A DNA stretch of 64,000 bases from the IMG/VR virus record IMGVR_UViG_3300025030_000006. One strand, written 5' to 3'. The notes beneath the pieces were generated by a model that saw only the letters and a program-made list of their open reading frames with translations, did not search any database and was not told the DNA's origin. The DNA is from a virus. The translations under genes and the position numbers were made by a program. How positions within the stretch are numbered: the first letter of the stretch is position 1; the number at the start of each line of letters is the position of its first letter. Positions 24,802 to 52,564 of this stretch are shown here, piece by piece.

Positions 24802-26466
24802 ATGTCTTTCTATTTTGAATTTCCCTCCATAGAAAGAAAATCAAAAACTAATTTTGATTGCAACAAATGCACTTTAAAGAATAATAAAATTCAATCCCCA
24901 GAAATGCAAATGTATGTTGGAGAACAATACGAAGGATTAATTATTTTAGGAAACAAAGCATCAAAACATGATGATGAAAAGGGATTTCCTTTTGCTGATT
25001 CCCGTTCAAAAATATTGAGAAGTACAGCCGCAAAATTCAGAATTAATTTATCAAAACAAGCCGCAATGCTTCATGCTGTTTCCTGCTATAACCCTACCAA
25101 AAAGAAAACTTCTGATACACATTTTAAATGCTGTCAAAGTATTTTAGATGCACGTCTTAAAGAATTACGTCCTAAATTGATTATCTGTTGTGGTGAATTG
25201 GCTTTTAAATATATTTTTGGGTTGAAAAACAAATATGCCATTTCAAAATTAAGAAACAGAATCATTCCTAATTACCAATACAACTGTCTGGTTTTTCCTG
25301 TTTACGACCCTTATAATTATGAAATGTATAACACCAGAAAAGAAGAGGAAGAACTAAGTTATTATTACGAACATGCTTATAAATGGGACTTACAAAGAAT
25401 ATTTGAATTATGGGATAAGAAATTTCATAAAAGAACGGAGGTCAACAAAGTTCTGAAAGAAAGAAAAATTCTTGAGAATATTGAAATAAAAGAAGTAACT
25501 GATTTCCATGAAGCCAAGGAATTATTCAGACTTTGGAATAAATCTAAAGCCATTTGCCTTGACTATGAAACCACTAATTTGTTTCCTTATGATAATCATT
25601 TTGAAATTGTTTATGCTGCCTTTGGAAATAAAACAAATGCTTGGGTTTTCCATGAAGATTTTTGGAAAGATAATCCATTCGTAAAGATTTGGTTCAAACG
25701 TCAAATGCAAAGGATTCTGGTTAATCAGAAAGTATTGAAAGTAGTTCAGAACAGCAAGTTTGAAGATTTATGTTCTAGGTTTGTTTATGGAATAAAAGAA
25801 ATAAAGAATTCATTTTGTACCATGCTGGCGCAACACGTAATTGATGAAAGAGAAGGATGTACTTCATTGGATTTCCAGAATTTAATACGGTTTGGAATTC
25901 CTCCTTATAATGAAACCATAAAGAAATATTTGATAACGGATAAGAAAGCCAAGGAAATTGAATCGGATGATTCAGAAGATGAGATGGAAGAAATCATTGA
26001 ATTGGATGAAGCAAAAGCATATACGTTTCAGAAAGTAAATAAAATCAGAGAAGCACCAAAACAAGATATGATTCAATACAACGGCCTTGACGTTATTACA
26101 GCATTTAATCAGTGGGTTTTATTTGAAAAAGATTTGTTGGATTCCTATCCTAAAGCCAGAGAGAATTACGAATTCTTGAATGAAGGTCATTGGTTGTTTG
26201 CCAGAATGAGTCAAAGAGGAGTTAATATTGGTGAACAGGAATTAAAAGATTTTGAATTGTTCTTGGAAAAAGAAATTGAAAGAATAGAAAAGAAAATAAT
26301 GGAGATACCGGAAATTCAAGAATATAACAAGCATTTGGAATCAAAAAGTTCAAAGACAAAGAAGAAAAAGAATGATAAGCAATTGGAAGATTTATGTTTT
26401 TCTAAACCTAAAAAGATTCGGTTGATTAATAGAAAATTTGATTTTACGGAAGGAGAAGAGAAATGA
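24802..26466 (+). CDS. polA: DNA polymerase I family, part 1: UDG-like domain, 3'-5' exonuclease and start of thumb
   Basis: Family-4 UDG-like GEQYEGLIILGN...GFPFAD; Exo I CLDYETTN, Exo II QNSKFED, Exo III YNGLDV. Confidence 0.8.
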   Translation: MSFYFEFPSIERKSKTNFDCNKCTLKNNKIQSPEMQMYVGEQYEGLIILGNKASKHDDEKGFPFADSRSKILRSTAAKFRINLSKQAAMLHAVSCYNPTKKKTSDTHFKCCQSILDARLKELRPKLIICCGELAFKYIFGLKNKYAISKLRNRIIPNYQYNCLVFPVYDPYNYEMYNTRKEEEELSYYYEHAYKWDLQRIFELWDKKFHKRTEVNKVLKERKILENIEIKEVTDFHEAKELFRLWNKSKAICLDYETTNLFPYDNHFEIVYAAFGNKTNAWVFHEDFWKDNPFVKIWFKRQMQRILVNQKVLKVVQNSKFEDLCSRFVYGIKEIKNSFCTMLAQHVIDEREGCTSLDFQNLIRFGIPPYNETIKKYLITDKKAKEIESDDSEDEMEEIIELDEAKAYTFQKVNKIREAPKQDMIQYNGLDVITAFNQWVLFEKDLLDSYPKARENYEFLNEGHWLFARMSQRGVNIGEQELKDFELFLEKEIERIEKKIMEIPEIQEYNKHLESKSSKTKKKKNDKQLEDLCFSKPKKIRLINRKFDFTEGEEK

Positions 26467-26714
26467 TATTAATTATGAATATATTGGTTATCGTTTTTAC
26501 CATCTTTGTTTTTGGTTACTGTATTGGTTGGGTTTTTTGCAATAGAGAATGGCGTTGGTATGCAAAATATAATGTACCTCACAGGCATAAAGGAAATTGG
26601 TATTTTGTAGAAAAGGAAAACAATGACAAAAAAGAAAGCACACCCTATAAAGAATTAAATGAAGCTCTTAATAGAATGGATGCAAAATTAAAGGAGAAGA
26701 GAAATGATAATTAG
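26463..26714 (+). CDS. small membrane protein inserted between the polymerase halves
   Basis: AAGGAGAAG RBS, ATGA overlap; N-terminal TM ILIMNILVIVFTIFVFGYCIGWVF. Confidence 0.55.
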   Translation: MILIMNILVIVFTIFVFGYCIGWVFCNREWRWYAKYNVPHRHKGNWYFVEKENNDKKESTPYKELNEALNRMDAKLKEKRNDN

Positions 26715-26937
26715 TAAAGATATTACTGAAAAAATTATTATTGGTGAAGGTTTTACAGATGAAGAATTAAATAAAGCAATAAATTTTTATTCTAATTTAT
26801 GTGATTCTATTAAATGTCTTGGAATACGTTATGATTTGGTTTTTTGTGATTTATTTCACACACTGGATAATTTGCAATCAATTAGATATTTTAGGGAGAA
26901 AAGAAATGAACAAGAGCAAATATGTAAAAGGATATAA
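26704..26937 (+). CDS. hypothetical protein inserted between the polymerase halves
   Basis: Same 19-nt RBS/start string as 26463. Confidence 0.5.
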   Translation: MIISKDITEKIIIGEGFTDEELNKAINFYSNLCDSIKCLGIRYDLVFCDLFHTLDNLQSIRYFREKRNEQEQICKRI

Positions 26938-27286: not shown

Positions 27287-28699
27287 ATGGATATGTTATT
27301 CAATACCCAAAGTAATATGCAGCTTCAGGAGTTTTTATATGAATTCCTAGAATTGAAACCACCAAGGGCAAAGAATGATAAAGGTAATTATTCGGTAGCA
27401 GAAGAAATATTAATTCATCATGCAGAGAAAGATGAAGTTGAATTCTGCAAATTACTGTTGAATATACGTAAATTGAAAAAAGCAAGAAATACTTATGCAA
27501 GGGGATTTAGAAGATATAAGGATGAATTGGAAGGAATGATTCATCCTGATTTTTGGCTTAACACAACAAAAACTTATCGGAGTTCTTCATCAAACCCAAA
27601 TTTTCAGAATTTGCCAAAACACGGTGAAATTATTCCCGGTATTGAGTGGCAAACGATTCGTAAAATATTCACCAGAAAATTATTAATTGAAAAGATAAAA
27701 GCTGGAGAAATAGAATTTACAATTCAAAATGGATTCATTGGTGAAGTTGACTATGTTGGTGCTGAAGTTAAAGTTGCCGCCGCTGAAGCAGACGATGAAC
27801 AATTGATTACTGATTTAAATAATGGATTCGACCAACACTCACATTGGGCTGGCGTTTTATTCGGAATCAATAAAGCAATTGAGGAAATAAAAAAGATACA
27901 CACTGAAGAAAGATTCCTTGCAAAGAATAACTTTACCTTTGCCAATCTCTTTGGTGCTGGCAATACTTCAATTGCGGAGGAAATGCGTAAAAGTGAATTC
28001 TACGTTGAATTTGTAAGAAAAGCATTTGAAAAAGCAAGACAATCAAAGGGGTTTAAATCCTCATGGAATGATTTTTTTAAAGAGTATTCGGAACAACATA
28101 TTCAGGAATGTCAAAATGTTTTTTATGACCGATATAAAGATGTAAAAGCATGGCAAGAATGGGTAGTAAAAAAATATTATGACGTTGGCTATGTAGAGAA
28201 CAAATTTGGGTTTAGAAGAAGATACCCAATGAAGCGTAATGAAATAATTAATTTTCCAATACAGTCAACAAGTTTTCATTTACTCCTTCATTCATTGATT
28301 GAAATTGAAAAGAAAATGGAACAATTGGATTTACAATCTAAATTGGTTGGTCAGATTCATGACTCTGGATTTTTTAATATTGTGAGAAGAGAAGCAGAAC
28401 AGGTTATGGATTTAATTGAATATGAAATGACTCACAAATCATTTGATTGGCTTAAAAAAATTAACCTAGAAGCTGAATTCGAGTTGTCTGATGATAGCTG
28501 GTACAATTTGAAATTGGAAAATAAATGGTTTGAAGCAAAACATATTAAATCAGAAGAAGTATTTAGAGAAAAATTCCTGCATGGATTTACAACTGATATA
28601 GGAATGGATGTTGATTTAATTGCAAAGATTCTGGCAGGGAAAAAGGACAAGGAAGGTAATCTGTATAAACTAGAAAATTGGTCTTTTTCCTATATTTGA
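27287..28699 (+). CDS. polA: DNA polymerase I family, part 2: thumb, palm and fingers
   Basis: FNTQSNMQLQEFLYE (FN.nS.kQL), SSSSNPNFQNLP, motif A VDYVGAEVKV, motif B RFLAKNNFTFANLFG, motif C QIHDS. Confidence 0.85.
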   Translation: MDMLFNTQSNMQLQEFLYEFLELKPPRAKNDKGNYSVAEEILIHHAEKDEVEFCKLLLNIRKLKKARNTYARGFRRYKDELEGMIHPDFWLNTTKTYRSSSSNPNFQNLPKHGEIIPGIEWQTIRKIFTRKLLIEKIKAGEIEFTIQNGFIGEVDYVGAEVKVAAAEADDEQLITDLNNGFDQHSHWAGVLFGINKAIEEIKKIHTEERFLAKNNFTFANLFGAGNTSIAEEMRKSEFYVEFVRKAFEKARQSKGFKSSWNDFFKEYSEQHIQECQNVFYDRYKDVKAWQEWVVKKYYDVGYVENKFGFRRRYPMKRNEIINFPIQSTSFHLLLHSLIEIEKKMEQLDLQSKLVGQIHDSGFFNIVRREAEQVMDLIEYEMTHKSFDWLKKINLEAEFELSDDSWYNLKLENKWFEAKHIKSEEVFREKFLHGFTTDIGMDVDLIAKILAGKKDKEGNLYKLENWSFSYI

Positions 28700-29025: not shown

Positions 29026-29202
29026 ATGAAAAGAATTAAACTGAAGGAAAAAAATAAAACATATTCAGAAGGGGTAAAATGTTTTGACAGATTTATAAAA
29101 ATGAATAGGGTTCATATTGATAAAATGAAGGATGAAGGAAAAGAAATGTATCTGTTCCTTGCTGGCTATTATGCCAAATGTAAAAGGGATAAAGGGGAAT
29201 AG
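29026..29202 (+). CDS. hypothetical protein, tandem paralog A (MKRIKLK...)
   Basis: GGAGA RBS before ATG 29026; similar to the next gene (MKRIKLK, F[ML]LF[ML][AS]G[FY]YA). Confidence 0.55.
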   Translation: MKRIKLKEKNKTYSEGVKCFDRFIKMNRVHIDKMKDEGKEMYLFLAGYYAKCKRDKGE

Positions 29203-29205
29203 TAT

Positions 29206-29409
29206 ATGAAAAGAATTAAATTAAAAGGAACAACAAAAGATTTTCAAACAAATTTTGATGATTATGCTGTTGGTAAAGGAAAATTTCAAATGTACATGAG
29301 ATTAAATAAACAACATTTGGATAAGGCAACAGAAAATGAAAAAGAATTTATGTTGTTTATGTCAGGATTTTATGCTGCTTGTCAGTATAAACTATCAGGA
29401 AATAAATAA
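29206..29409 (+). CDS. hypothetical protein, tandem paralog B (MKRIKLK...)
   Basis: AAAGGGGA RBS. Confidence 0.6.
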   Translation: MKRIKLKGTTKDFQTNFDDYAVGKGKFQMYMRLNKQHLDKATENEKEFMLFMSGFYAACQYKLSGNK

Positions 29410-31263: not shown

Positions 31264-31498
31264 AAACAAATCTAATCTTGTTCAGTATAAATCCCCTTAA
31301 TTGCTGGAAACCCCTTAGAGCCAATTGAACTACAACGTAGCTGGAAACGGCAAGCGTGAATGTTTGAAAATCAATTGGATTGGGCAATCAGCAGCCAAGT
31401 GCCTTTAAAATGGTGAAGGTTCAGAGACTATCCCGTAAGGGAGTAGGATTCAAGTGAATCCGAAATGGGGGACAAATAACAAAAATTCCTTTATTTTC

Positions 31499-31527: not shown

Positions 31528-31573
31528 CTTAAAATAAGTTTTCAGCACAAAATAGGACAAGGGAGATTTTATT

Positions 31574-32198: not shown

Positions 32199-32735
32199 GA
32201 GATTGAAAAAGCCTTTGCAGGTGCGTCCGGTCAAAATCTTGATTCTGGTGTAAGTCAAGGGATGTTGGGTTATTTTTTAACATGGATGCAAGAGCGTAAA
32301 TCAGAAGGAATTGTTATTGCTACTGCAAATGATTTATCAAAATTACCTCCAGAATTTCTTCGTGCTGGTAGGTGGGATTGTATTTGGTTCGTTGATACGC
32401 CAAATGAAAATGAAGTAAAAGTTATCATTGAAATTATGAATAGGCGGTATCATTCAAAACTTCCTACCGATTCCAATTTCTGTAAAGAATTGGCTGAACA
32501 ACAATGGACTGGTGCTGAAATTGAACAATTGGCTAAAGATTCCCATTTCGATGATTTGGATACGGCAATGAATAATATTCCTTTGCTATCCAGTTTCAGA
32601 AAAGAAGAAATGGATGAAATCAGGAAGAAAGCTAAAATGTTTCGTGCTGCCAGTAGTAAAGGAGAACCAATCAGAAAGAAAATTCAATTGAAAACAAAAC
32701 CTGTTGCTGCCGGTAGAAAACTGAATCTTCATTGA
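32199..32735 (+). CDS. AAA+ ATPase (Ycf46-like), exon 2
   Basis: Begins EIEKAF (rest of Walker B); sensor-1 IVIATAN, second region of homology PPEFLRAGRWD. Confidence 0.75.
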   Translation, partial: EIEKAFAGASGQNLDSGVSQGMLGYFLTWMQERKSEGIVIATANDLSKLPPEFLRAGRWDCIWFVDTPNENEVKVIIEIMNRRYHSKLPTDSNFCKELAEQQWTGAEIEQLAKDSHFDDLDTAMNNIPLLSSFRKEEMDEIRKKAKMFRAASSKGEPIRKKIQLKTKPVAAGRKLNLH

Positions 32736-34190: not shown

Positions 34191-34982
34191 ATGAGAAAAG
34201 ATGGACTGACAACTTATGAAAGAGTTGAAATTGAAGAAAGAATTGATACTTGGTTTGAAGGAAAAAATGATAATCAAATTGATGGATATGATTTTGATGA
34301 TATTGTAGAAGCAATTATTGGAATAGTTGAAAATACTATTACGGTTGATTTGGTAAATGTGAGAAAATTCACTGATGTAAATAAATTCATTGAAAATAAA
34401 GTACAAAATAAATTAAAAGAAATTGAAAGTAGAATAAGGGAAAAAGAAATAAAAAGTGTAAGGGGAAAATTTAAAAAGAAAGAAAAAGTAAGCCTTGGAA
34501 TTGAAGTAACCAATGCCATATTTAAACAAAAGAGGATTGGGTATAATGACAGATATACACCAACAAAGGCACTAAGTAATGTAATATTTTCTTCTGTAGA
34601 AAAAAATTCTAGAGATGAAATAGTATTCTCCATATTTTGTAACAATAAAAATGAATTTAAAGATGTAAAATATGTAAAGGGAACATTTGCATTTAATGTG
34701 TTGGATGAAAATAAAAAAGAAGAAACACCAAATTATATAGAAAGAATGGTTTATAATTATACAAACAATAATTACAATAGACAGTATAGTTATGAGGGGT
34801 TGCTAAAAGTATTATCTATTGATAATACTGAGGTTTTTATTGAATTTATTGGTAAAAGTTTAAATGGGGATTTTTTAAAATATATGGCTGATAGAAAAGA
34901 ATTTATTTTAAAGAGATTGGAAGAAGAAAAGAAAAAGGAAATGCTGGCTAATAGAAAAATAAATAGGCGATTTCATTTTTAA
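34191..34982 (+). CDS. hypothetical protein with C-terminal RKINRRFHF tag
   Basis: GGGAGG RBS; 263 aa. Confidence 0.65.
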   Translation: MRKDGLTTYERVEIEERIDTWFEGKNDNQIDGYDFDDIVEAIIGIVENTITVDLVNVRKFTDVNKFIENKVQNKLKEIESRIREKEIKSVRGKFKKKEKVSLGIEVTNAIFKQKRIGYNDRYTPTKALSNVIFSSVEKNSRDEIVFSIFCNNKNEFKDVKYVKGTFAFNVLDENKKEETPNYIERMVYNYTNNNYNRQYSYEGLLKVLSIDNTEVFIEFIGKSLNGDFLKYMADRKEFILKRLEEEKKKEMLANRKINRRFHF

Positions 34983-34997: not shown

Positions 34998-35489
34998 ATG
35001 AGTTTAAGTGATTCATTTGATATAAAAGAAAAATATGATGAATATAAAATAGAAGTAGACATTGAAACAGCACAAAGGGAATTTTTACCTATAGATATTC
35101 AATTTAACACTGTAAAAACCAAATACAAAATATTTAGTATTGTAGAACCACTTAAATTCAATGTGGTGACTAGAAAATTATTAGGCAATTCTGGAGAAAT
35201 AATTGGACAATCACCAACAACAATTGAAATTGATATAGTTACAAGTGGAACATTCTTTGATTCAAATGATATTAAAAATGAAGTTTGTTTAAGTTTTAAA
35301 AACAAACAATATGGTTTAATTTATGGATATATAAAGGATACAAAGATAAGTCAGAAAGTAGGTAGCAATTACGTTTGTCTTGAATTTAAATTTGTTGGTG
35401 TGCTTGGTACATATTTTATGGATACAAAGAACGAAGAAGAAATTAAGAAAACAATAAGAAAAATAAATAGGCGATTTCATTTTGATTGA
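34998..35489 (+). CDS. hypothetical protein with C-terminal RKINRRFHF tag
   Basis: AAAGGAGG RBS; the last 27 coding nt before the final codon are identical to 34953-34979. Confidence 0.65.
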   Translation: MSLSDSFDIKEKYDEYKIEVDIETAQREFLPIDIQFNTVKTKYKIFSIVEPLKFNVVTRKLLGNSGEIIGQSPTTIEIDIVTSGTFFDSNDIKNEVCLSFKNKQYGLIYGYIKDTKISQKVGSNYVCLEFKFVGVLGTYFMDTKNEEEIKKTIRKINRRFHFD

Positions 35490-35767: not shown

Positions 35768-36715
35768 ATGAATGAGAAAACGGGTAAAATTAAAAGGCTA
35801 AAATTGAGAGGAAAAGAAAGACCAAAAATCGCAACGGGTAAATCGAATGAGATTAATATCTTTAACCTTGGAACCCTTCTTCAGTTTGAATCCCATTGTT
35901 GGCAAGCGGTAAAAAGAATTCCCAAAGATAAAGCTAAAAAATATGGTAAGGATTTTGAAAAGGGTTGGATGAAAGCCAATAAAAACCTGATTAATAGGAA
36001 AAAATTGGAAGACATTCAATCTTATATTTCTGAATCCAGAAAAATGATTAATTCCTATGCCCTTCCTTTTCCAATCAAAGGTATTTACTTTATTCCCAAT
36101 AATGCTGTTGAAAAAATCAATAGTGGTCTGAGAACCATTGCTGATGAAATGGGAGTCAGAGTAGAAGAATTTTCCCAACAATACTCTGAATACATTTTGG
36201 AAGCTAAGGAAGAATTGGGGGAGGAATCTTTCAATGAAGCAGATTATCCAATTAATATTAAATCTAGGTTTGGTATTTATTGGAGATTCTTTGAAATGAC
36301 TGTTCCCTCTTCCATCACCAATGAAATCAAAGAAGAAGAAACAAAACGGTTTAATGATTTGATGCAACAGGCTAAGACGGAAGCTGTTATTGCATTGCGG
36401 GAAGGGTTTGCAGAAATCGTAAATCATTTGACTGATACTCTTTCGGGAAAGATTGATGGAGAAGAAAGGAGAATTAGGGCAACATCCCTTGAAAAAGTAT
36501 CTGAATTTTTCAATGAGTTCCAATCTAAAAACGTATTTAAAGATAGTGAATTAGAATTGTTGATTAAGAAAGCGAAAGAGGTAGTCAGGGGTGTTTCTCC
36601 CAAAGATTTGAGAGATGATAATTCTTTGGTTAAATTGATTCATAATCAATTGGGGGAAATCAAAGAACAGTTGGATAATTCCACGGAAACCATTCGTAGA
36701 CGTTTCACTTTTTAA
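35768..36715 (+). CDS. hypothetical protein with N-terminal KIKRLKLRGK and C-terminal IRRRFTF
   Basis: GAGGAGG RBS; 315 aa; family not recognised. Confidence 0.65.
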   Translation: MNEKTGKIKRLKLRGKERPKIATGKSNEINIFNLGTLLQFESHCWQAVKRIPKDKAKKYGKDFEKGWMKANKNLINRKKLEDIQSYISESRKMINSYALPFPIKGIYFIPNNAVEKINSGLRTIADEMGVRVEEFSQQYSEYILEAKEELGEESFNEADYPINIKSRFGIYWRFFEMTVPSSITNEIKEEETKRFNDLMQQAKTEAVIALREGFAEIVNHLTDTLSGKIDGEERRIRATSLEKVSEFFNEFQSKNVFKDSELELLIKKAKEVVRGVSPKDLRDDNSLVKLIHNQLGEIKEQLDNSTETIRRRFTF

Positions 36716-36934: not shown

Positions 36935-37165
36935 ATGGATTACATTGAAATATTTAAAAACTATACTCTCTGTGTTTATTTGTTTTTTACAATTTGTTTT
37001 TGGGTATATCTTATTCATTTCTGTATTCAGAAATTTAAACAACAAAAACAAAGTATTTTTGTAACAATTGTTTTCTTTGTTTTGTCAGTTATTACAACTC
37101 CTTTCATTTGGCCTTATATTTCTGCTCGTTTCCTTATTAAGTACATGACAAAGGAAACAAAATGA
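36935..37165 (+). CDS. small membrane protein (2 TM)
   Basis: AAGGAAGGA RBS before ATG 36935. Confidence 0.5.
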   Translation: MDYIEIFKNYTLCVYLFFTICFWVYLIHFCIQKFKQQKQSIFVTIVFFVLSVITTPFIWPYISARFLIKYMTKETK

Positions 37166-37677
37166 AAAAACTATCCTTGAAATCAAAAGAAAATTCAGAG
37201 GAAGAAAGGAGTAATAAATCAGAAAGTGATTTAGAATTCATTATTAATAATCTGCAAATAGATAAATTCAAACTGGATGATGCTGCTGTTAAACAAATTG
37301 AATTATTTAACAAAATATCCAAAATTCTGCCAAAAGCAAGAGAGGCAGCATTAAGGGCAAAAAATAGGTTAGAAATCATTGAATCAGAATTATCAAAAGA
37401 AATGAGAAAAAATCCAAAATTGTACGGTTTGGATAAAACAAGTGATACCGTAATCACAAAGGAGGTAAAGAATCAAGATACATATAAACGGGCATTTTCA
37501 GCTTATTGTTTTGCAAAAGCAAAAGAAGATGAGTTTTCTATTACATTAAACAATATTCAAGAAAGGGGAAGAATGATAAAACTGCTTTATGATATGTGGG
37601 TTAATAGTTACTATGTTGATAATCACCAATTTGTAACAAAGAAAAAGCACCCATTAAAAACAACAGAGGATTACTAA
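37162..37677 (+). CDS. coiled-coil protein, possible UvsY-like recombination mediator
   Basis: Call rests on size, helical character and position next to the gp32-like SSB and RecA genes. Confidence 0.3.
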   Translation: MKKLSLKSKENSEEERSNKSESDLEFIINNLQIDKFKLDDAAVKQIELFNKISKILPKAREAALRAKNRLEIIESELSKEMRKNPKLYGLDKTSDTVITKEVKNQDTYKRAFSAYCFAKAKEDEFSITLNNIQERGRMIKLLYDMWVNSYYVDNHQFVTKKKHPLKTTEDY

Positions 37678-37693: not shown

Positions 37694-38830
37694 ATGGCTT
37701 TGAAAAAGAAATTGGGAAAAGGTAAATCGTCTGATTCTGATATCCGCGGAAAATTCAAAAAGAGGGATAAAACTATTCTTGAAAAAACGTACAATGAAAG
37801 GGAGGATAGAAGTAAAGCAGGTGGTGGTGGAAAATCTTATTTCAATCAGGAAAAATTGGAAGAATTCAATATCAAAGAATATCAACCTCACAAGGGGGAT
37901 AATTACTTTGAAATTCTCCCGGTTTCTTATGAATCGGATATTCCCTATCATTTTGGTTGTTCCGTCCATTTTGGTACAGGCATTGCCAATGATATTTTTC
38001 TTTGTTTGCTTCGGTATAATGGAAAACCCTGCTATCGTTGTGAACAACAGCAATTGAAATACAGGGAACACCCTAAAGGTGCTAAACCTACGGATGAAAT
38101 CAAAAAACTTTATCCCACAGACAGGGAAATTTATCTGCTTTGGGATAGAACAGAAGAATTGGCAGAAAATAAAGACCCCGAATATCAATTGTATCTTTGG
38201 GGTGCTCCGAAAACAAAAGTACATGCTGAAATCCAGATTCTTGTCAGGGATAAGAAAAAGAAAACCACTCTTGATATTTCTGACGTTGATGAAGATGGAG
38301 AAGGCAGAACGGTTAATTTTGAAAAGATTCAGAAAAATAAAGATGATTTTCCCGAATATAAAGGATTTTCACTTTTGGGAAGGGATGAACCTATCCCTGA
38401 TGAAGTTCTTTCCCAATTGAAAGAAATCATTGAAGCAGCAGAAGAATGCAATTATAAACATCCTCTGGAAATGTTTTTGCATATTCCTGAATATAAAGAA
38501 GTCAAGGAATCCATGCTGACTGAAGGGGGTGGTGAAAGTGATGAAGAGGAAGAAGAAGACAAACCAAAGGATAAAAAGAAAAAGTTTGGAAAGGATAAAG
38601 ATAAAAAGAAAGATGAAGAGGAAGAAATTGATGAGGATGCCCTTCTTGAAAAACTTGAGGGGCTTAAAGAAAAACTTGGGGATATGAATAGATTTAAGTT
38701 TAAAAAATGGTGCGAAGAAAATGATTATGAAGATGCGGCTGAAATGGATAAAGAAGAAGCCATTGAAGCCATTGTTGATGACTTATACTCAAAAATGCTG
38801 GACAAAACAATTGGGGCAATTCCATTTTAG
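37694..38830 (+). CDS. gp32-like single-stranded DNA-binding protein
   Basis: AGGAGGA RBS; YFEILP (cf. iRfLP), zinc motif H...C-x8-C-x2-C (CLLRYNGKPCYRC), long acidic C-terminal tract. Confidence 0.55.
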   Translation: MALKKKLGKGKSSDSDIRGKFKKRDKTILEKTYNEREDRSKAGGGGKSYFNQEKLEEFNIKEYQPHKGDNYFEILPVSYESDIPYHFGCSVHFGTGIANDIFLCLLRYNGKPCYRCEQQQLKYREHPKGAKPTDEIKKLYPTDREIYLLWDRTEELAENKDPEYQLYLWGAPKTKVHAEIQILVRDKKKKTTLDISDVDEDGEGRTVNFEKIQKNKDDFPEYKGFSLLGRDEPIPDEVLSQLKEIIEAAEECNYKHPLEMFLHIPEYKEVKESMLTEGGGESDEEEEEDKPKDKKKKFGKDKDKKKDEEEEIDEDALLEKLEGLKEKLGDMNRFKFKKWCEENDYEDAAEMDKEEAIEAIVDDLYSKMLDKTIGAIPF

Positions 38831-40074: not shown

Positions 40075-41208
40075 ATGAGCCGTCTTAAATTGAGTAATAA
40101 ACATATTGAAGAAGAAAAACCAAAAAAGAAAATATCTCTGAAAAAAGCATTGACAGAAGAACCAGAAGAAAAAAAGGAAAATGAAAGAATTGATTTTCTT
40201 AATACTGGTTCCATTGTTTTAAATCTTGCTGCTTCTCAAAAAGGAAGAAGGGGAGGATGGGCAAGGGGTAGGGTTATTAATATAGTCGGAAATGAGTCAA
40301 GTGGCAAGTCGCTTTGTAATTTAGAAATGTTAGCAAATGCTTTTCATACATTTAAAAAAGAAAATAACCTTCCTTCTTATGTTTTCCCAAAGGTTAAGAA
40401 TCTGATTATGGTTTATAATAATGTAGAAGGGATTATGGATTTTCCCTTGGAGTCCCTTTATGGTGAAGATTTTGTAAAAGCAATTGAATGGGTTTCTTCT
40501 AAAACCTGTGAAGAATTTGGTAGAGATGTTCAAAGAAGAGTTGATGCTTTAAAACAGGGTGATTGTCTTTTATACGTTGTTGATTCTTTGGATGCAATGG
40601 TTTCTTCAGCACAAAAGGAAAGAACAGAAAAAGCATTGAAGACAGACAAGGATGAAGATGCCGCTTATGGTGCTGAAAAAGCCAAATATTTTTCTGGTGC
40701 ATTTTTCAATAACCTTTGTGAAAAACAACAGGGGAAAGATGCTACCATTTTTATGATTTCTCAATTGAGAGAAAATATTGGTGGTGGAATGTTTGCAGAA
40801 AAATATAAAAGAACAGGTGGAAAAGCATTGGATTTTTATTCTCACCAAGTTTGTTGGTTGCGGGTAAAAGATAAATTGAAAAAAACATTTAGAGGGCATG
40901 ATAAAATCTTTGGTGTTCGTGACCATGCACTTTTCAAAAAGAATAAATGTGCAAAACCCTTCAGGGAAGCAGAATTTACTATTCTATTTGATTACGGTTT
41001 GGATAATATCGGTTCCATGACAGATTATTTGTTTGGGCCACAAGTTAAAGTTATTGAATGGAATGATGAGAAGTATAAACGGGATGAATTTATTGATTTG
41101 ATTGAAAACAATAAAAAAGAATATGAAAAATTGGTGGATAAGATAGAAAAAGATTGGGCTGAAATTGAGGACGCAATTAAACCAGATAGAAAAAACAGGT
41201 GGGAATAA
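40075..41208 (+). CDS. recA: RecA/UvsX-family recombinase
   Basis: Walker A GNESSGKS, Walker B LLYVVDSLDAM, ISQLRENIGGGMFAEKYKRTGGKALDFYS (cf. NQiR.kiG..fG....ttGG.AlkFYa). Confidence 0.8.
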   Translation: MSRLKLSNKHIEEEKPKKKISLKKALTEEPEEKKENERIDFLNTGSIVLNLAASQKGRRGGWARGRVINIVGNESSGKSLCNLEMLANAFHTFKKENNLPSYVFPKVKNLIMVYNNVEGIMDFPLESLYGEDFVKAIEWVSSKTCEEFGRDVQRRVDALKQGDCLLYVVDSLDAMVSSAQKERTEKALKTDKDEDAAYGAEKAKYFSGAFFNNLCEKQQGKDATIFMISQLRENIGGGMFAEKYKRTGGKALDFYSHQVCWLRVKDKLKKTFRGHDKIFGVRDHALFKKNKCAKPFREAEFTILFDYGLDNIGSMTDYLFGPQVKVIEWNDEKYKRDEFIDLIENNKKEYEKLVDKIEKDWAEIEDAIKPDRKNRWE

Positions 41209-41457: not shown

Positions 41458-41763
41458 ATGGAGACAATAAAACAAACAATCATAATCATTCTTATTTATG
41501 CCTTTTTTGCTTTTCTTCTAATTCACGTTCCTTCTTCTCATGCTAAGGATGCTGTGATTCATACTTATGATGATTCTTATTTCTTTTTGGATTACAGTAA
41601 ACAAGAAATTATTGTCTTACCTAATGATGAAATAATTAATACTGAAGACTTGGATAATTTAAAAGAAAATGATGAACCATTAAGAACAAACGAGGGAATT
41701 GAAATTTACAGAGGATATGATAATCAATATTTCATGGAAGAGGAAAACCATGATGAAGATTAA
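41458..41763 (+). CDS. secreted or membrane-anchored acidic protein
   Basis: GAGGGGG RBS; signal-like IIIILIYAFFAFLLIHVPSSHA. Confidence 0.6.
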   Translation: METIKQTIIIILIYAFFAFLLIHVPSSHAKDAVIHTYDDSYFFLDYSKQEIIVLPNDEIINTEDLDNLKENDEPLRTNEGIEIYRGYDNQYFMEEENHDED

Positions 41764-42082
41764 ATTGAAGGAATCAAAATATGGAAATTATCAATTTTGT
41801 AAAAGAGATGATTTAATAAATTTATGGATTAACCAATATTATAAAGATAAAGTCGTAGTTGTTCTTTATGACTCTTACAAAGCATTTGAATCCATTCCTT
41901 TTCTGAATATTCTGAAAAGGGATAGGTTGCCTGTCTACCTTGAAGGTATCCAATCAGAGTATACTTTTGTTGAATTTGAAACACCAGAAAAAGCCTGTGA
42001 TTTTGTATTTGGATTTGAATATAAAACTGAATTAAAATGGGTTATTTATAATAATGGAAAACTTCACATGAGGTCAAAATGA
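41750..42082 (+). CDS. hypothetical protein (MMKIKLKE...)
   Basis: GAGGAA RBS before ATG 41750. Confidence 0.55.
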   Translation: MMKIKLKESKYGNYQFCKRDDLINLWINQYYKDKVVVVLYDSYKAFESIPFLNILKRDRLPVYLEGIQSEYTFVEFETPEKACDFVFGFEYKTELKWVIYNNGKLHMRSK

Positions 42083-43534: not shown

Positions 43535-44011
43535 ATGAGTCTATTTAAGAATCCACATGCTAATCAAAGATATTTTGAAAGAGTACATCCTGATACTGCA
43601 TCCAAGAAAGATATTGTCAAAGCATTACAACATCCAAGTAATGTTGAATATATCAAAAGACTGACCGAAGGGAGGTCAATGGTTTATATTCATCTGCCAA
43701 ATGATAATATTGTAAAAGCTATCATAAATAAAAGGAAAAAAGAAATTGTAACAATTTTGCCGTGGAAAGATATTTATAAAATTGAAATTCCCATTCATAA
43801 TTTAATAAATTATTATATTGTTGATTTTTACCCTGATTGTTTTTTAGAAACAAATAATCCATCAACTTTGAACAAAATAAAAAAATATCAATATGCAAAT
43901 TTCATGTACGAATATATTGAATACAACAATTCTGACTTTGAACCAATTATTTTAAAAGCATGGGAAAAATATGAAAAAAATAATCCTGAAAAAGAAACCA
44001 AAGAAAGTTGA
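43535..44011 (+). CDS. hypothetical protein, weak DUF4258/BrnT-like N-terminus
   Basis: AAAGGAG RBS; HANQRYFER...IVKALQ...VYIHLPNDNIVKAII...IVTILP. Confidence 0.3.
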   Translation: MSLFKNPHANQRYFERVHPDTASKKDIVKALQHPSNVEYIKRLTEGRSMVYIHLPNDNIVKAIINKRKKEIVTILPWKDIYKIEIPIHNLINYYIVDFYPDCFLETNNPSTLNKIKKYQYANFMYEYIEYNNSDFEPIILKAWEKYEKNNPEKETKES

Positions 44012-44354
44012 ATTAAAGAAAAAAGAAAATAATAAAGACAGACAACCAAGTAATGACACATATCCAAGTAAAAAGGTTGAACAATTTCATAATACACTTG
44101 ATAGAAATATAAAGTTATCAGAAGAAAGGAATAAAACTTTAGGAAAACCAGAAATTGGTAAATGGTACAATTATAAAGAAAGATTTCCCCCTAATGACTT
44201 CAACCAATGGATTGCTGTTGAATCAGAACAAGAAAATATAGAAGCACATAAATCAGCGGTTATGCTACAACATTATATTTCTGACGTTTTTTGTTGTGAT
44301 AGAAAACCAAGATACCCAAAATGGACACTAATTCCAAAACAAAAGGAGAAATAA
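43971..44354 (+). CDS. hypothetical basic protein (MKKIILKKKPKKVELKKK...)
   Basis: Overlaps upstream gene by 41 nt; weak RBS. Confidence 0.5.
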   Translation: MKKIILKKKPKKVELKKKENNKDRQPSNDTYPSKKVEQFHNTLDRNIKLSEERNKTLGKPEIGKWYNYKERFPPNDFNQWIAVESEQENIEAHKSAVMLQHYISDVFCCDRKPRYPKWTLIPKQKEK

Positions 44355-46288: not shown

Positions 46289-47209
46289 ATGTTAATTCTT
46301 ATTTGTGGTGACTTCCATATAACGGGTAAAAACCCAATAAGCCGATTGGATGATTTAACTGAGACACAATTTTTAAAATTAAATGAGATTAAAGATTTTG
46401 CAAATAAACATAATTGCCCCATTGTTTCTGTTGGTGATTTTTTTCACGTTCCTATAATTGCTAATAGTATTCTTAATAGAGTTGGAGAAATTTTAAATCA
46501 ATTAGATAACCCTTGGTATACTTGTTGGGGCAATCATGACACACTTTATCATTCAGTTGAGTTAGCCAATCGTACAAGTCTTGGGGTATTATTGACAAAT
46601 CATCCAAAGATAAAACATATAACAAAGTTTAAAAATGATTATGGCGTTTCCTTCGATTATACCGATTGGGATACACCAACAAAGGAAAATAATTCAAAGT
46701 TTCTTTTATCTCATAAGGCTATAATTTCTGAAAAACAATCCAAGTCAAATTTCTGGATTGAGAAAGATGAAACCTTTGCAAAACAAGTTGGAAAATGGTC
46801 TGACAAATATAAAATAATTATATGTGGACATTGGCATATCTCATACCGTTTCAAACACAATAAAACACTGATAATCAATAGTGGTCCAATTAATCGCTTG
46901 ACCATAGAAGATAATCTGCAACCATCTGTTGTTTTACTTAATTTAGAAACAGGTATTTTTAAAAGACACTACTTAGAATCTGCAAAACCATTCGATGAAA
47001 TCATCTCTGCCAAACATATTATCAGAAAGGAGAATAATTCAGAAAATATTAAAAAGTTTATTTCCGCAATTAATAAAAAAAGAAGTAATTATGATTCAGC
47101 ATTTATGGATTATTTAATGGAAATTGTTGATAACCATGAGTTAGATAAAGACATGGAGGAATTATTGGTTAATATTCTAGCTAAAACAAAAGAAAGGAAA
47201 AACAAATGA
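46289..47209 (+). CDS. sbcD: Mre11/SbcD-like metallophosphoesterase nuclease
   Basis: ICGDFH, VGDFFH, WGNHD, ICGHWH calcineurin-like motifs in canonical order. Confidence 0.7.
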   Translation: MLILICGDFHITGKNPISRLDDLTETQFLKLNEIKDFANKHNCPIVSVGDFFHVPIIANSILNRVGEILNQLDNPWYTCWGNHDTLYHSVELANRTSLGVLLTNHPKIKHITKFKNDYGVSFDYTDWDTPTKENNSKFLLSHKAIISEKQSKSNFWIEKDETFAKQVGKWSDKYKIIICGHWHISYRFKHNKTLIINSGPINRLTIEDNLQPSVVLLNLETGIFKRHYLESAKPFDEIISAKHIIRKENNSENIKKFISAINKKRSNYDSAFMDYLMEIVDNHELDKDMEELLVNILAKTKERKNK

Positions 47210-47478
47210 ATGATGGAAACAACAGTAGAAGATTTAAAGTAATGACAATTTCAAACGAAAACATGCTTAAACTTATGACAGGAGAAATACGAATTAAGAA
47301 TATTCCAGAATATACAAAACTGCGTGAGGCTTTTCCTAGGGATTTTTCAAGGTGTTGGGGAATAGTTATTGAACATCCTAGTTTTCCAGAAGTACCATTA
47401 GGAATGGAATGTGAAAGTTTTGTTCTTGAGATTGAAGAAACTGGAAAAAGAAATGGAAGAAAACTTTACTTTGACTAA
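47206..47478 (+). CDS. hypothetical protein
   Basis: AAAGGAAA RBS, ATGA overlap. Confidence 0.6.
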   Translation: MNDGNNSRRFKVMTISNENMLKLMTGEIRIKNIPEYTKLREAFPRDFSRCWGIVIEHPSFPEVPLGMECESFVLEIEETGKRNGRKLYFD

Positions 47479-48293: not shown

Positions 48294-48557
48294 ATGGGAA
48301 TAAATACTATTAAAGAGAGAAAAAGATTAGAAAATATCAAAGAACAATTAGAAAAATTGAAAGAAAAGCAAAGGGAAACAGAAGCAGAAAAGAAAATGCT
48401 AATGAAGAAGTTAAAAGATGATTATGGGTGTTCTAACATAAAAGAAGCTGAAACACTGTTGGAAGAACTGGAAGAAGAAAAGGAAGAAAAAGAAAAAGAA
48501 ATAAATAAAAGAAATGAAAAACTGATTAGTGATATGAAAGCTGAAGGACTGATGTAA
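48294..48557 (+). CDS. coiled-coil protein, candidate descending coiled-coil piece of the split Rad50
   Basis: GGAG RBS before ATG 48294; almost pure Lys/Glu heptads; its stop overlaps the start of the C-terminal ATPase gene. Confidence 0.45.
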   Translation: MGINTIKERKRLENIKEQLEKLKEKQRETEAEKKMLMKKLKDDYGCSNIKEAETLLEELEEEKEEKEKEINKRNEKLISDMKAEGLM

Positions 48558-49129
48558 TGGATATAAATAGAACTATTAAATTATTGGAGGCAAAAAATAC
48601 TGAATTAAATATTGCCATAGATACCTATACAAAAACGAATGAACAGATAAGAAAGGAAAAAGATAATCTACTAAAACTTGATAAATTAAAAAACCTGATA
48701 ATTGATGTTGGTCAAAAAAGTCAAAAAGATATTGTTGAATATATTACGTCAACTGTTGGTCTTGCCATTAAAGGAATATTTGGGGAGGAATATGATTTTA
48801 AAATTGAATTTGAAATAAAGCGGGACCAGACAGAATGTAAGTTCTTTGTTGAAAAGGATGGATTGTTATTGGAGCCACGTTTAAATGTGCAGGGAGGAGG
48901 TATTGCCGATGTAGTAGCTTTTGCAATGCACATTCTGATTTTAACTTTGGAAAAAACACCACCGATATTAATAATGGATGAGCCGCAATTTAAAAATGTT
49001 TCAAAAGAACATCTGGATAAAGTTGCAGAAATGGTAAAAAATTTAATTTCATCTATGAATATACAATTAATTATGGTTACACATATTTCAGAAATGATAG
49101 ATATAGCCGATAATATTATTGAGATTTAA
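48557..49129 (+). CDS. sbcC: Rad50/SbcC-like ATPase, C-terminal head
   Basis: Signature-like QGGGIAD, Walker B ILIMDEP, H-loop MVTHIS. Confidence 0.6.
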   Translation: MDINRTIKLLEAKNTELNIAIDTYTKTNEQIRKEKDNLLKLDKLKNLIIDVGQKSQKDIVEYITSTVGLAIKGIFGEEYDFKIEFEIKRDQTECKFFVEKDGLLLEPRLNVQGGGIADVVAFAMHILILTLEKTPPILIMDEPQFKNVSKEHLDKVAEMVKNLISSMNIQLIMVTHISEMIDIADNIIEI

Positions 49130-50277: not shown

Positions 50278-50577
50278 ATGCTGTGTGAAAGGTATCATTG
50301 CCAGCTTTCAACAGAAATATGTTTAAAAAGGCAAGAAAAGGCTAAATCACAATCAGAATCACTGTCCTTCTGTGAGTCATTAATTTTCTGCAATAAATGT
50401 GAACAAGGTTCTAAAATATCAATAAAGGAAAACAAAATATATGATTTAGATATTTTTAAATTAAAGAAAAAAACCATTAAAGATTTAATTTGTAGAAAAG
50501 ATTTTAGAATGTTCAAAATTAAACGGGTGGAATTGAAAAGGAAACCTAAACGAATTCAATTGAAAAGGAGAAGATGA
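50278..50577 (+). CDS. Cys-rich protein with basic C-terminal repeats (RVELKRKPKRIQLKRRR)
   Basis: AAGGGA RBS. Confidence 0.6.
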   Translation: MLCERYHCQLSTEICLKRQEKAKSQSESLSFCESLIFCNKCEQGSKISIKENKIYDLDIFKLKKKTIKDLICRKDFRMFKIKRVELKRKPKRIQLKRRR

Positions 50578-50578: not shown

Positions 50579-51169
50579 ATGGCTTATCTGGAAAAAGAAA
50601 ATTTAAGGAGTGTATTACAAGACAAAGGAATCCTTCAGGAAGCCAACAGAACCTTCTTTCACCCTCTTGGATTGGCATTAACCATTATTTATTTTGAACA
50701 AACAGAAAGAACAGAGCTGAAATTGCAATATACAGAACACGAAGAGGGTTTTGTATTTGATTCGTTGGATAAAATTAAAAGAGATATTTTCAGGGATTTT
50801 GCCAATGACAAGTATGAAAAACGGCAGGATTATTTGGGTTTCCTGATTCAAATTCAGGATATGCTTGATAATGATATTAATGTAAAAAGAAAAACAAATA
50901 TTAAAACAGACAGAATGGAAATCATTTTTAAATACTTGAAAGAATTTATTTTTTCCATGCAGTTTCGTTTTATGAAAGAGCACCAGAGTAAAGACTTTGA
51001 TAATTCCTTTTTGTCAAAAGAAGATTTGATTACTAAACTTAATGTTAATATGATTCGTGAAGATTGGGCAAGCGTTGCGAATTATGCCATGATTATTAAT
51101 TGTTATGACAAATTGGAAAAGGAAATATCAGAACTTGTTATGGAAGAAGAGGTAATTGAAAATGATTAA
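50579..51169 (+). CDS. hypothetical protein
   Basis: AAAGGAGA RBS. Confidence 0.65.
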   Translation: MAYLEKENLRSVLQDKGILQEANRTFFHPLGLALTIIYFEQTERTELKLQYTEHEEGFVFDSLDKIKRDIFRDFANDKYEKRQDYLGFLIQIQDMLDNDINVKRKTNIKTDRMEIIFKYLKEFIFSMQFRFMKEHQSKDFDNSFLSKEDLITKLNVNMIREDWASVANYAMIINCYDKLEKEISELVMEEEVIEND

Positions 51170-51659
51170 AATGAAATTAAAGAAAAAAAGTAATGGGCCA
51201 ATATTATCAGACCAAGAACTATCAGAGTTAAAGCAACATGACGTTACTTATAATAGAGCACTGATAAAAAACAATGTCTTACCTATTGGTCCTTTTACAC
51301 GTTCTGATTTTCCTTTGTTAAAAGGAGAAAAGAAAAACAAAGAATTTTATATACGAATTGACCTTTATACCATTGACCGTTATTTTATTGACTCTTTAAC
51401 AAGAAAAAGAACCAAAGAGACTTTATTCTACCCCAACAGTACTTTTAGAAAAGAATATGATGAAGTAAAGGGAAAAGGAAAAGATTGTGATGGTTATATT
51501 TTTAAATTATATGAAAAATTGAAAGTTGATGGTCTTGGAACTTTGACTTTGGGAATTAAAAGAATTTCAGTTCAAAAAATGCAATTGAAAAGAAAAGAAA
51601 AACCTAAAAAATTAGTATTGAAAAAGAAATCTAAAAAATTACTATTGAGGAAAAAATGA
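51156..51659 (+). CDS. hypothetical protein with basic N- and C-terminal h-x-L-K-K-K repeats
   Basis: GAGG RBS; C-terminus MQLKRKEKPKKLVLKKKSKKLLLRKK. Confidence 0.6.
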   Translation: MKMIKMKLKKKSNGPILSDQELSELKQHDVTYNRALIKNNVLPIGPFTRSDFPLLKGEKKNKEFYIRIDLYTIDRYFIDSLTRKRTKETLFYPNSTFRKEYDEVKGKGKDCDGYIFKLYEKLKVDGLGTLTLGIKRISVQKMQLKRKEKPKKLVLKKKSKKLLLRKK

Positions 51660-52564
51660 AACGAATAATATTAAAAAGGAAGATACCTAAACGAGAAGAA
51701 AGAACGAGAACTCTAGTAGTGGACGGTAAATGGTTTGCATATAAAAGTCGATTTTCTCAGGGGCAATCTTTTTTAACTCATAATGATGTTAAAACGGGAG
51801 TCTACTATGGTTTCTTCAGTTCTATTCTTTCCCTTGCAAAAAAACTAAATACCAATAAAACAATAATTTGTTGGGATATTGGTGATGAATCAAAAAGAAG
51901 AAATGTTTATCCTGATTATAAAAGAAAAAGAAACACAAAACCACTGACTCAATTTGAATTAGATTTAAATAAACAATTTAAAGAAGAATATTTAAATTTG
52001 GTTGAATACTGTAAAGAAATAGGTTTTGGTGGTAATTATATTTTGGGTTATGAAAGTGATGATTTAATGGCAGCTTATTGTTTACAAAATCCAAACGAAG
52101 AAATATTTTTGGCAACAAAAGATGAGGATATGTATCAATGTTTAAATGACCATGTAACTATTTACAATAATGACGATAAAATTAAAAAAACTGATAAATG
52201 GTTTCAAAAGGAATATGGAATTGACCCTTTGGATTGGAATATGGTGAAAGCAATAAGTGGTTGTTCAAGTGACAATGTAAAAGGAATAGAGGGCATTGGT
52301 GAAAAAACAGCATTAAAATATCTAAGAGAGGAATGTAGTGAAAAACAATTACAAAAAATAAAAGATAATTGGAAAACTGTAGAAGAATGTTTAGCCGTTG
52401 TAACTCTGCCTCATCCTGATTTGCAAAATGATTTTATATTTGGGTTTACTCAAAGTAATATTGATGTGGATAAATTTATCAGTTGGTGTCAACGCTTTGG
52501 AATGAAAGATTTTTTAAATAATATTTCAGATTTTAAACTATATTTCACTAAAAATAAAATGTAA
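51656..52564 (+). CDS. 5'-3' exonuclease / flap endonuclease (PIN-like plus H3TH)
   Basis: LVVDGKWFAY, YKRKR, GYESDDLMA, TKDEDMYQ, ISGCSSDNVKGIEGIGEKTALKYL. Confidence 0.8.
   Translation: MKRIILKRKIPKREERTRTLVVDGKWFAYKSRFSQGQSFLTHNDVKTGVYYGFFSSILSLAKKLNTNKTIICWDIGDESKRRNVYPDYKRKRNTKPLTQFELDLNKQFKEEYLNLVEYCKEIGFGGNYILGYESDDLMAAYCLQNPNEEIFLATKDEDMYQCLNDHVTIYNNDDKIKKTDKWFQKEYGIDPLDWNMVKAISGCSSDNVKGIEGIGEKTALKYLREECSEKQLQKIKDNWKTVEECLAVVTLPHPDLQNDFIFGFTQSNIDVDKFISWCQRFGMKDFLNNISDFKLYFTKNKM

Follow-up and report, generated by a model that had tools for sequence, protein, structure and literature searches.

A clade-specific short linear motif at the termini of replication and recombination proteins in an uncultured phage from groundwater

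The IMG/VR virus record IMGVR_UViG_3300025030_000006 raises the question of why many otherwise unrelated proteins of a single replication/recombination block begin or end with almost the same short basic-hydrophobic peptide. The stretch analyzed here (64,000 nucleotides, 30% GC, hereafter the window) is part of a ~98.5-kb phage contig found in metagenomes of groundwater and sediment at Rifle, and no close cultured relative of this phage was found. A preliminary description had listed such peptides on about 20 proteins and proposed a common docking site. All the peptides it quoted are present where it had placed them, and its count was roughly right, with ~15 solid cases and 4 doubtful ones. 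Our comparison of the window with 26 related IMG/VR loci, plus one further locus around the FEN gene, led us to conclude that the peptide is a clade-specific, conserved short linear motif found in at least 12 protein families that act in replication, recombination and repair and have no other relationship. No published description of the motif was found in the literature on DUF1257, DUF2997 and DUF3150, on phage Cdc48-like ATPases or on linear motifs of phage replisomes.

The motif logo reads K-[P/K]-[KR]-[KR]-[LIVF]-x-[LF]-[K or end], with near-invariant hydrophobic positions and a variable x, and there is a C-terminal variant, [KR]R[KR]-h-[ST/polar]-F-COOH (h, hydrophobic). The regular expression of the preliminary description gave 16 matches. 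A strict form, [KR][KR][ILVM].L[KR], gave 13, every one of them (13/13) at most 20 residues from a terminus, and the broader [KR][KR][ILVMF].[LF] gave 30 in 142 greedy open reading frames (ORFs), 27 of these being at most 25 residues from a terminus (ratio of terminal to internal density, 15.8). By whole-protein shuffling, 7.2±2.6 terminal matches were expected; shuffling of only the terminal 30 residues, with their composition kept, gave 8.1±3.0 and a maximum of 16 in 300 shuffles. The excess over these tail-local shuffles indicates that residue order in the tails is non-random beyond their Lys-rich composition, bearing out the earlier claim of terminal enrichment above compositional expectation. 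Across the 26 related loci, which are not independent of one another, 139 terminal matches were counted against 29.5±5 by shuffling. The convincing cases in the window all fall between 21 and 52.6 kb, and the large structural proteins outside the block show chance internal matches only, with no terminal ones. C-terminal instances are as frequent as N-terminal ones, and the N-terminal placements are credible because a Shine-Dalgarno (SD)-like sequence lies upstream of each start. Five Arg and five Leu codons are used within the motif and synonymous choice is free, so selection acts at the protein level, and an origin as a DNA-level repeat or promoter is ruled out.

Loss of the tails in orthologs had been named beforehand as grounds for giving up the idea; the tails are, instead, conserved. 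A terminal motif is present in 5/5 orthologs of the protein encoded at 21397 (genes without a family name are called by their start), 7/7 of the PolA exonuclease subunit, 14/15 of the AAA+ ATPase, 22/23 of the DUF3150 protein (related loci) and 17/19 of the 37162 protein. For RecA, 19/20 orthologs have the relaxed form [KR]h-x-[LFI] in their first 14 residues (control families, 0-4). Low shares were found for the polymerase subunit (1/11), DUF1257 (1/16), the gp32-like protein (3/19), the 41699 family (0/14), SbcC (0/9), SbcD (1/8) and the PDDEXK nuclease (1/13), and from this last share it follows that the two matches in the window copy of the nuclease are not conserved. The matches in the PDDEXK nuclease (42632) and in the 24347 and 39049 genes were classed as not conserved or uncertain.

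The tails persist across orthologs down to ~30-45% identity, and those of FEN and of the 51156 and 43971 proteins are kept in a 55%-identical relative. Orthologs of the 21397 protein have, for example, KPKRFKLS or KRLTLP as C-terminal motif, those of the PolA exonuclease subunit end in KPIRRKLSF, KIKRKIQF or GKRKFLF, and those of the AAA+ ATPase in KPRKL[KQNR]L[NK], the tails reading P-[RK]-K-L-x-L. Syntenic relatives of the 34998 protein (155-176 amino acids) end in RKLSF, RKLTF or RKFTF, and the 51156 ortholog ends in KRLTLKSKGKNVKRIKLRKKT. The 43971 ortholog has MKKLILKKKPKRIKLFKK and an additional C-terminal KIKLRRK. The motifs of FEN and RecA belong to extensions that the Pfam domains do not cover: in FEN, 5_3_exonuc_N begins at residue 19, the ortholog has MKKLNLKKIPKRK, and the FEN of an unrelated phage is without the 15-residue N-terminal extension. 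Motif copies are also gained and lost among relatives. The tail of the 50278 protein is partly degenerate in one ortholog (L037, IKRKKLKR) and missing in another (L012), and the 41750 motif is kept in the closest relative only and absent from distant ones.

The DUF3150 protein provides the deepest sampling, with 44 metagenomic homologs at 33-87% identity. Together with the window protein, 43/45 members have [KR]R[KR][LFV][ST]F 0-2 residues from the C-terminus, with R invariant at position 0 and F at +4 in 38/43; the N-terminal copy is strict in 20/45 and relaxed in 32/45. Motif and core are joined by a linker of variable length and sequence. In the AlphaFold2 model, residues 1-27 and 309-315 have a predicted local distance difference test score (pLDDT) <50, beside a confident core with a helical, phage-specific fold that has no PDB match. 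As a separate observation, the C-terminal class [KR]R[KR]-h-[ST]-F-COOH fits the consensus of basophilic Ser/Thr kinases (R-x-x-S/T-hydrophobic), with Ser or Thr at the x position in 39/43 DUF3150 orthologs; a kinase was not seen among the genes of the window.

The motif can also change ends. In the 37162 family it is N-terminal in the subclade of the window and C-terminal in 16/19 orthologs, as KPKRI[RQK]L[DE]EA[DE][DE]Y, the form in the 16 distant orthologs being KPKRIRLDEADEY. This switching between termini, with the gain and loss of copies, the conservation and the disorder, is behavior typical of a selected short linear motif, and the hallmarks of that class (a disordered region, conservation in orthologs, varying flanks and position, unrelated carrier proteins) were all observed. 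The network appears to be restricted, in its sharp form, to a groundwater clade of ~100-kb phages. Cultured phages of Rhizobium (RHph_I4, L338C) and Pseudomonas (SM1, PaMx31) share the AAA+/DUF1257/DUF2997 module, and the termini of RHph_I4 and SM1 are Arg-rich without enrichment of the motif pattern. The same clade restriction was found for the family of the acidic 22018 protein and for the split of PolA, both discussed below.

Table 1. Motif instances and related features of the replication/recombination block, by position in the window.
Feature	Position	Strand	Remark
RRFNL, near C-terminus of 137-aa protein (gene 21397-21810)	21778..21792	+	C-terminal motif in 5/5 orthologs
Acidic clade-specific 22018 protein, alternative hub/scaffold candidate	22018..23520	+	directly upstream of PolA
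UDG-like + 3'-5' exonuclease subunit of split family A polymerase (PolA part 1)	24802-26466	+	
C-terminal tail of PolA part 1	26404..26445	+	Pfam UDG, DNA_pol_A_exo1
Polymerase subunit of split family A polymerase	27287..28699	+	no motif
KRIKL, N-terminal (MKRIKLK), small protein 29026-29202	29029..29043	+	SD-like sequence upstream of ATG 29026
KRIKL, N-terminal (MKRIKLK), small protein 29206-29409	29209..29223	+	SD-like sequence upstream
AAA+ ATPase, exon 1	30310-31263	+	
AAA+ ATPase, exon 2	32199-32735	+	
KKIQLKTKPVAAGRKLNLH, two-copy C-terminal tail of AAA+ ATPase	32673..32732	+	in exon 2
RRFHF-COOH, 263-aa protein 34191-34982	34965..34979	+	L004 ortholog ends RRIHFD
RRFHF(D)-COOH, 163-aa protein 34998-35489	35469..35483	+	
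KRLKL, N-terminal tail of DUF3150 protein (gene 35768-36715)	35792..35806	+	
RRFTF-COOH, DUF3150 protein	36698..36712	+	
KKLSL, N-terminal (MKKLSLK), 171-aa protein 37162-37677	37165..37179	+	
gp32-like SSB, candidate receptor	37694..38830	+	Foldseek to RB69/T4 gp32 core, E=6e-6
RLKL (relaxed) + KKISL (strict), N-terminal extension of RecA (gene 40075-41208)	40081..40140	+	Pfam RecA
KIKLK in MMKIKLK, N-terminus of protein 41750-42082	41756..41770	+	relaxed, weak
MKKIILKKKPKKVELKKK, two tandem N-terminal copies, 127-aa protein 43971-44354	43974..44015	+	
RKLYF(D)-COOH (GRKLYFD), 90-aa protein 47206-47478	47458..47472	+	absent from the list in the preliminary description
KRVELKRKPKRIQLK, two C-terminal copies, 99-aa Cys-rich protein 50278-50577	50521..50562	+	
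KMKLK (relaxed), N-terminus of 167-aa protein 51156-51659	51168-51182	+	
KMQLKRKEKPKKLVLKKKSKKLLLR, three C-terminal copies, 167-aa protein 51156-51659	51576..51647	+	
KRIIL, N-terminal (MKRIILKRK), FEN / 5'-3' exonuclease (gene 51656-52564)	51659..51673	+	
DnaB-like helicase, second candidate receptor tail	52575..54017	+	Pfam DnaB_C

Some earlier examples have to be reclassified. The start of the gp32-like single-stranded DNA-binding protein (SSB), MALKKKLGK, had been listed as an instance, but it follows a separate conserved pattern, L-x-[DKN]-[RK]-L-x-K-K. The N-termini of the 41750 and 51156 proteins hold up as a relaxed form with one basic residue, not as the strict motif. Two adjacent genes, 34191 and 34998, have tails (…RKINRRFHF) that are identical in DNA, AAT AGG CGA TTT CAT TTT (34965-34982 and 35469-35486), which suggests that the tail was recently duplicated or spread by gene conversion.

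What might the motif bind? The reading we favor, at a chance of about 45%, is a shared docking peptide for a common acidic hub, the first candidates being the gp32-like SSB with its C-terminal region and the DnaB-like helicase with its tail. With the i and i+2 spacing of an extended strand, the two hydrophobic side chains would occupy a groove while the flanking Lys and Arg residues would pair with an acidic surface of the partner; tandem copies would add avidity. The tails could in this way tether all the enzymes that bear them to one acidic partner at the fork. The prime partner would be the acidic linker, helical domain and DDDIPF-type tip of the gp32-like protein, along with the tail of the DnaB-like helicase, which is acidic and ends in aromatic residues, and the arrangement would amount to a charge-reversed, peptide-borne form of the T7 basic patch with its gp4 and gp2.5 tails and of the T4 gp32 A-domain, to which UvsX, RNase H, polymerase and others are recruited. 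We infer docking to a protein, and the identity of that protein; a portable module binding an acidic tail or hub is proposed because of the gp32-like C-terminus, the DnaB-like tail and the position of the polymerase tail at the site of the T7 thioredoxin-binding domain (TBD).

In the structural model of the gp32-like protein, the Zn-OB core is accompanied by a disordered acidic linker (279-310), a confident four-helix domain (314-369) and an acidic tip. The mean net charge of the last 100 residues is -14.6. The tip ends in IPF in the window (38630-38830) and in DDDIPF, EDDLPF, ESDIQL or EADINF in orthologs, DDDIPF being identical to the tip of E. coli SSB. The DnaB-like tail (53940-54017) ends in ...EEEKEAENYY, with a net charge of -8 over its last 25 residues; ortholog ends read ...DYEDVEDESKVESY, and the acidic tail with an aromatic end is conserved (KVESY). 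T4 gp32 uses its C-terminal domain to recruit gp59, UvsX, UvsY and Dda, and it also regulates RNase H (PMC11551737). The phage protein resembles this hub in its gp32-type core with an acidic C-terminal region, as it resembles E. coli SSB in the DDDIPF end of some orthologs, and the proteins that bear the motif (polymerase, a RecA/UvsX-like recombinase, a FEN/RNase H-like enzyme, nucleases) mirror the gp32 interactome (PMC11551737). In the gp32 and SSB systems, however, the hub bears the shared peptide and every client has a folded pocket of its own, whereas here the clients share a peptide of opposite charge; being basic, this peptide also falls outside the definition of the SSB C-terminal tip (an acidic run with a hydrophobic or aromatic end). 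The extra folded four-helix C-terminal domain also sets the phage protein apart from T4 gp32.

The polymerase brings the second line of comparison. The Pol I-type enzyme is made as three polypeptides, the UDG-like and 3'-5' exonuclease subunit, the polymerase subunit and FEN (Table 1). The break between exonuclease and polymerase is conserved across the clade and no intron was found in the PolA gap, so the split is genuine; in relatives the two PolA genes are separated by a 204-aa ORF. The polymerase subunit, which is without the motif, enters Pfam DNA_pol_A at profile position 30 (residue 5), and that of a relative (L019) at position 29 (residue 11), while T7 gp5 re-enters the same profile at position 29 (residue 333), directly past the TBD. 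In a MAFFT alignment the tail of the exonuclease subunit (...SKSSKTKKKKND...KPKKIRLINRKFDF) falls opposite the TBD of T7, in the stretch from helix H to the FNxxS motif, and the motif tail thus occupies the thumb-tip location of the T7 basic patch, between helices H and H1. In T7, the TBD comprises residues 269-302 and helix H1 residues 346-355 (PMC9198812), and the acidic tails at the C-terminus of gp4 bind to the basic patch of this domain (PMC12593628). Both replisomes pair a family A polymerase with a DnaB-family helicase and an SSB, the latter two having acidic tails that end in aromatic or hydrophobic residues, and in both the polymerase has its basic element at the one topological site (PMC12593628; PMC9198812). 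They differ in that the polymerase here is split at this site and offers a short disordered C-terminal peptide, where T7 has loops of a 76-residue folded insertion, and in that the same peptide also occurs on about a dozen other proteins. The polymerase studied here is not known to depend on thioredoxin.

Several points weigh against an acidic SSB/helicase hub. A short basic peptide would be an unusual receptor for a flexible acidic tail, as T7 uses loops of folded domains. Homologs of gp32 and DnaB with acidic tails are widespread in phages without the motif, and acidic tails alone therefore fail to explain its clade restriction. That the AAA+ hexamer bears the motif as well is no specific prediction of an SSB model. 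Further acidic candidates, such as the 22018 protein, the polymerase subunit or host proteins, may turn out to be the receptor, and the likeness of the C-terminal class to a basophilic phosphorylation site makes regulation or a second receptor possible. The peptide does show the properties that the common docking site of the preliminary description would have (terminal position, selection at the protein level, conservation, disorder); the hub factor, compartment and DNA tether named there remain no more than candidates.

We also considered, as a possible but rather doubtful case, that the motif and its receptor form a new replisome hub independent of any clamp. One form of this hub would be a new peptide-binding factor at the thumb tip, a processivity or hub factor shared by polymerase, recombinase, FEN, nucleases and the Cdc48-like unfoldase. 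The other would be a replication compartment in which the 22018 protein acts as a multivalent acidic scaffold and the tails serve as entry tickets. Taken by itself, binding of the tails to the acidic 22018 repeat protein, as a scaffold or condensate that forms such a compartment, seems to us unlikely. The family (18 members, without Pfam domains) is confined to the clade that bears the motif, with no homolog found outside it, and the protein is itself without the motif. It has a net charge of -42, a pI of 4.7, a conserved N-terminus ([VI]-[RK]-LP-x-WK-x-YLY) and 4-5 small helical modules, resembling helix-extension-helix motifs, that are separated by E/K-rich linkers. Its gene lies directly upstream of PolA, the position held by the clamp gene in Edwardsiella phage vB_EpM_ZHS, and tandem motif copies would suit multivalent binding. 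PDB profile searches, however, came back empty, no sign of peptide binding by its modules was seen, and the phyletic correlation rests on one clade. No homology was found to a clamp or to a 475-aa protein of a Rhizobium phage that is syntenic to one of a Pseudomonas phage.

Improbable, too, is that the tails are generic basic-hydrophobic tethers to DNA or to an anionic membrane. Such tethers are familiar: the MARCKS effector domain is a membrane-binding peptide with an alternation of basic and hydrophobic residues, like KRFSFKK, and bacterial membrane-targeting sequences are terminal. The tails are rich in Lys and Arg and contain KPKK segments, and in more distant relatives the termini are Arg-rich but show no sharp motif. 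Yet tail shuffles that keep charge and hydrophobicity lose ~70% of the matches in the window and ~80% of those in the related loci, and P(-1), h(+2) and [LF](+4) are conserved far beyond the needs of generic electrostatics. An amphipathic helix would require i, i+3/4 spacing over 8-14 residues; the motif has two hydrophobic positions, i and i+2, which are incompatible with it. The AT-hook core (RGRP) is also missing. Generic binding to DNA or membrane is thus disfavored by the tail-local shuffles and the positional conservation.

The AAA+ ATPase in the middle of the block suggests another role, that of a tag by which a phage Cdc48/VAT-like unfoldase recognizes or tethers its substrates in order to remodel and recycle replisome and recombination complexes. 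The enzyme (Pfam AAA) belongs to the classical Cdc48/VAT/PAN clade (PDB 5vc7, E=1e-39), and a role as clamp loader was rejected on this account. Its gene is interrupted within Walker B (junction CIVILD|EIEKAF) by a group I intron at about 31264-32198 (Rfam RF00028, 48.4 bits, E=5e-11, slightly below the gathering score) that carries an HNH homing-endonuclease ORF (31574-32161); in relatives the gene is uninterrupted and encodes ~500 amino acids. Since the interruption is an intron, the product is one polypeptide of ~490 residues with the motif at its C-terminus. Basic-hydrophobic peptides at free termini serve comparable systems, as in the basic C-terminal tag of MuA (ClpX C-motif 2, RRKKAI), the SspB XB peptide and the p97 VBM. 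Threading ATPases typically read short peptides at free disordered termini, which would explain the strict terminal position, and the AAA+ gene is in a conserved module with the motif-bearing DUF3150 and 155-176-aa proteins. Against this, the ATPase has the motif tail itself in 14/15 orthologs, which fits a client better than a receptor, and no recognizable substrate-binding N-domain was identified in it. RHph_I4 and SM1, moreover, share AAA+, DUF1257 and DUF2997 without the network, and no protease partner was seen. We regard this role as having a low probability.

The same low expectation attaches to a variant clamp-binding motif (CBM) that docks to the host beta clamp or to an unrecognized phage clamp. 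A common terminal peptide on polymerase, FEN, nucleases and ATPase is the classic signature of a 'tool-belt', and CBM and PIP peptides are likewise short linear motifs in the disordered termini of many unrelated replication and repair proteins, with hydrophobic anchors one residue apart (h-x-h) and basic flanks common (PMC11139829). The CBM, however, is defined as Q-phi-x-[L/M]-[F/L] or Q-phi-x-[L/M]-x-[F/L] (PMC11139829), and in none of the 27 terminal instances is the first hydrophobic residue preceded by Gln, K or R being there instead. A hydrophobic residue directly after [LF] occurs in 1/27, the position usually being K or the chain end, and the Gln, the hydrophobic pair and the aromatic pair of these classes are all missing. 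A regular-expression scan for PIP (Q-x-x-h-x-x-[FYW][FYW]), APIM and T4 gp45-type ([ST]LDFL at a terminus) motifs found none at termini, only two internal chance PIP matches, and identity with canonical CBM, PIP, APIM or T4 motifs was rejected; the motif is distinct from every motif class tested. The sole canonical QLSLF is internal in the primase and not conserved.

The clamp itself was also not found. In agreement with the preliminary description, which had recognized no sliding clamp, neither a clamp nor a loader was detected in the window or in the 26 syntenic loci by Pfam, PHROGs and NCBIfam family searches (~50 proteins, with ~22 kb of the genome outside view) or by phmmer and hhalign against the clamp and loader of phage ZHS. 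The AAA+ ATPase is Cdc48-like, RecA and SSB-associated proteins are atypical clients of a clamp, and DUF3150, considered as a clamp, was ruled out by its helical phage-specific fold. Phage ZHS, the only cultured phage with a gp32-like homolog, keeps some interest in a clamp alive. A DnaN-like clamp and a true clamp loader flank its fused UDG-PolA, syntenic with the block, and its terminal R-x-R-[VI]-x-L pattern has 7 matches against 1.7 expected; having been defined post hoc, this pattern counts as no more than a lead. The module of ZHS (OM621816.1, 24223-48753; L036 in our set) holds the DnaN-like clamp, UDG-PolA, the clamp loader, a gp32-like protein and RecA, and several of its proteins (RuvC, small ORFs) begin or end with peptides of the type P-R-[KR]-x-R-[VI]-x-L. 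This phage is possibly an experimentally tractable analogue. With regard to the primase (57190-58197), its internal QLSLF is missing in a 53%-identical ortholog (L037, 13529-15628), which has an intein-like insertion of ~360 residues after the zinc-finger cysteines.

Finally, a by-product of the Lys/Ile/Leu-rich proteome of an AT-rich genome, or of a DNA repeat at gene boundaries, has a negligible likelihood, for although GC is low and AAA codons are commonly described as frequent after start codons, terminal matches are 3-4 fold more frequent than in composition-matched or tail-local shuffles, copies occur at C-termini as often as at N-termini, synonymous codons differ between copies, and orthologs keep the motif where control families and structural proteins are without it; the whole-protein and tail-local shuffles and the ortholog controls rule out a compositional artefact.

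The block that houses the motif is on the plus strand and spans 21-58 kb according to Pfam, PHROGs and NCBIfam assignments. Earlier gene calls for PolA part 1, the AAA+ ATPase, RecA and FEN were confirmed by Pfam and that for the gp32-like SSB by Foldseek. Other than the 22018 and polymerase genes, the block encodes the AAA+ ATPase, DUF1257, DUF2997, DUF3150, the gp32-like SSB, RecA and a PDDEXK nuclease, followed by a split SbcC, SbcD, ThyX, FEN, the DnaB-like helicase, dUTPase, an SF2 helicase and primase. A single-copy tRNA-Leu (anticodon TAA, 24036-24127) lies directly upstream of the polymerase genes. The SbcC/Rad50-like ATPase is apparently split into an N-terminal half (45089-46126) and a C-terminal half (48557-49129), between which are SbcD, the 90-aa motif-bearing protein, ThyX and a coiled-coil ORF, in the same order in relatives. 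Tail and structural genes lie just past the right end of the window. By the tail-fiber region, two adjoining minus-strand genes (60505-62268) have the look of glycosyltransferases: 61390-62268 matches Glyco_transf_9 (heptosyltransferase-like), and 60505-61326 has no family match and is only guessed to be one. The putative pair hints at a host with surface glycans of the lipopolysaccharide type; a DUF3150 profile scan of GTDB genomes for the host gave no match.

New with respect to the preliminary description are the failure of the CBM and PIP definitions, the Cdc48/VAT type of the AAA+ ATPase, the position of the polymerase tail at the T7 TBD and the clade restriction. The few peptide-hub systems known from replisomes are PCNA with its PIP box, the beta clamp with its binding motif, the C-terminal tip of SSB and the acidic tails of T7. 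If the docking model is true, an additional, charge-reversed hub system would be added to these, in an uncultured lineage with a split Pol I-type polymerase and no recognizable clamp. The motif offers a concrete bait of 6-8 residues for the organizing factor of this replisome, and a sequence signature by which small phage proteins that cannot otherwise be annotated may be assigned to the replication and recombination machinery. It also lets one viral clade display how a linear-motif network arises and spreads, the switching of termini included.

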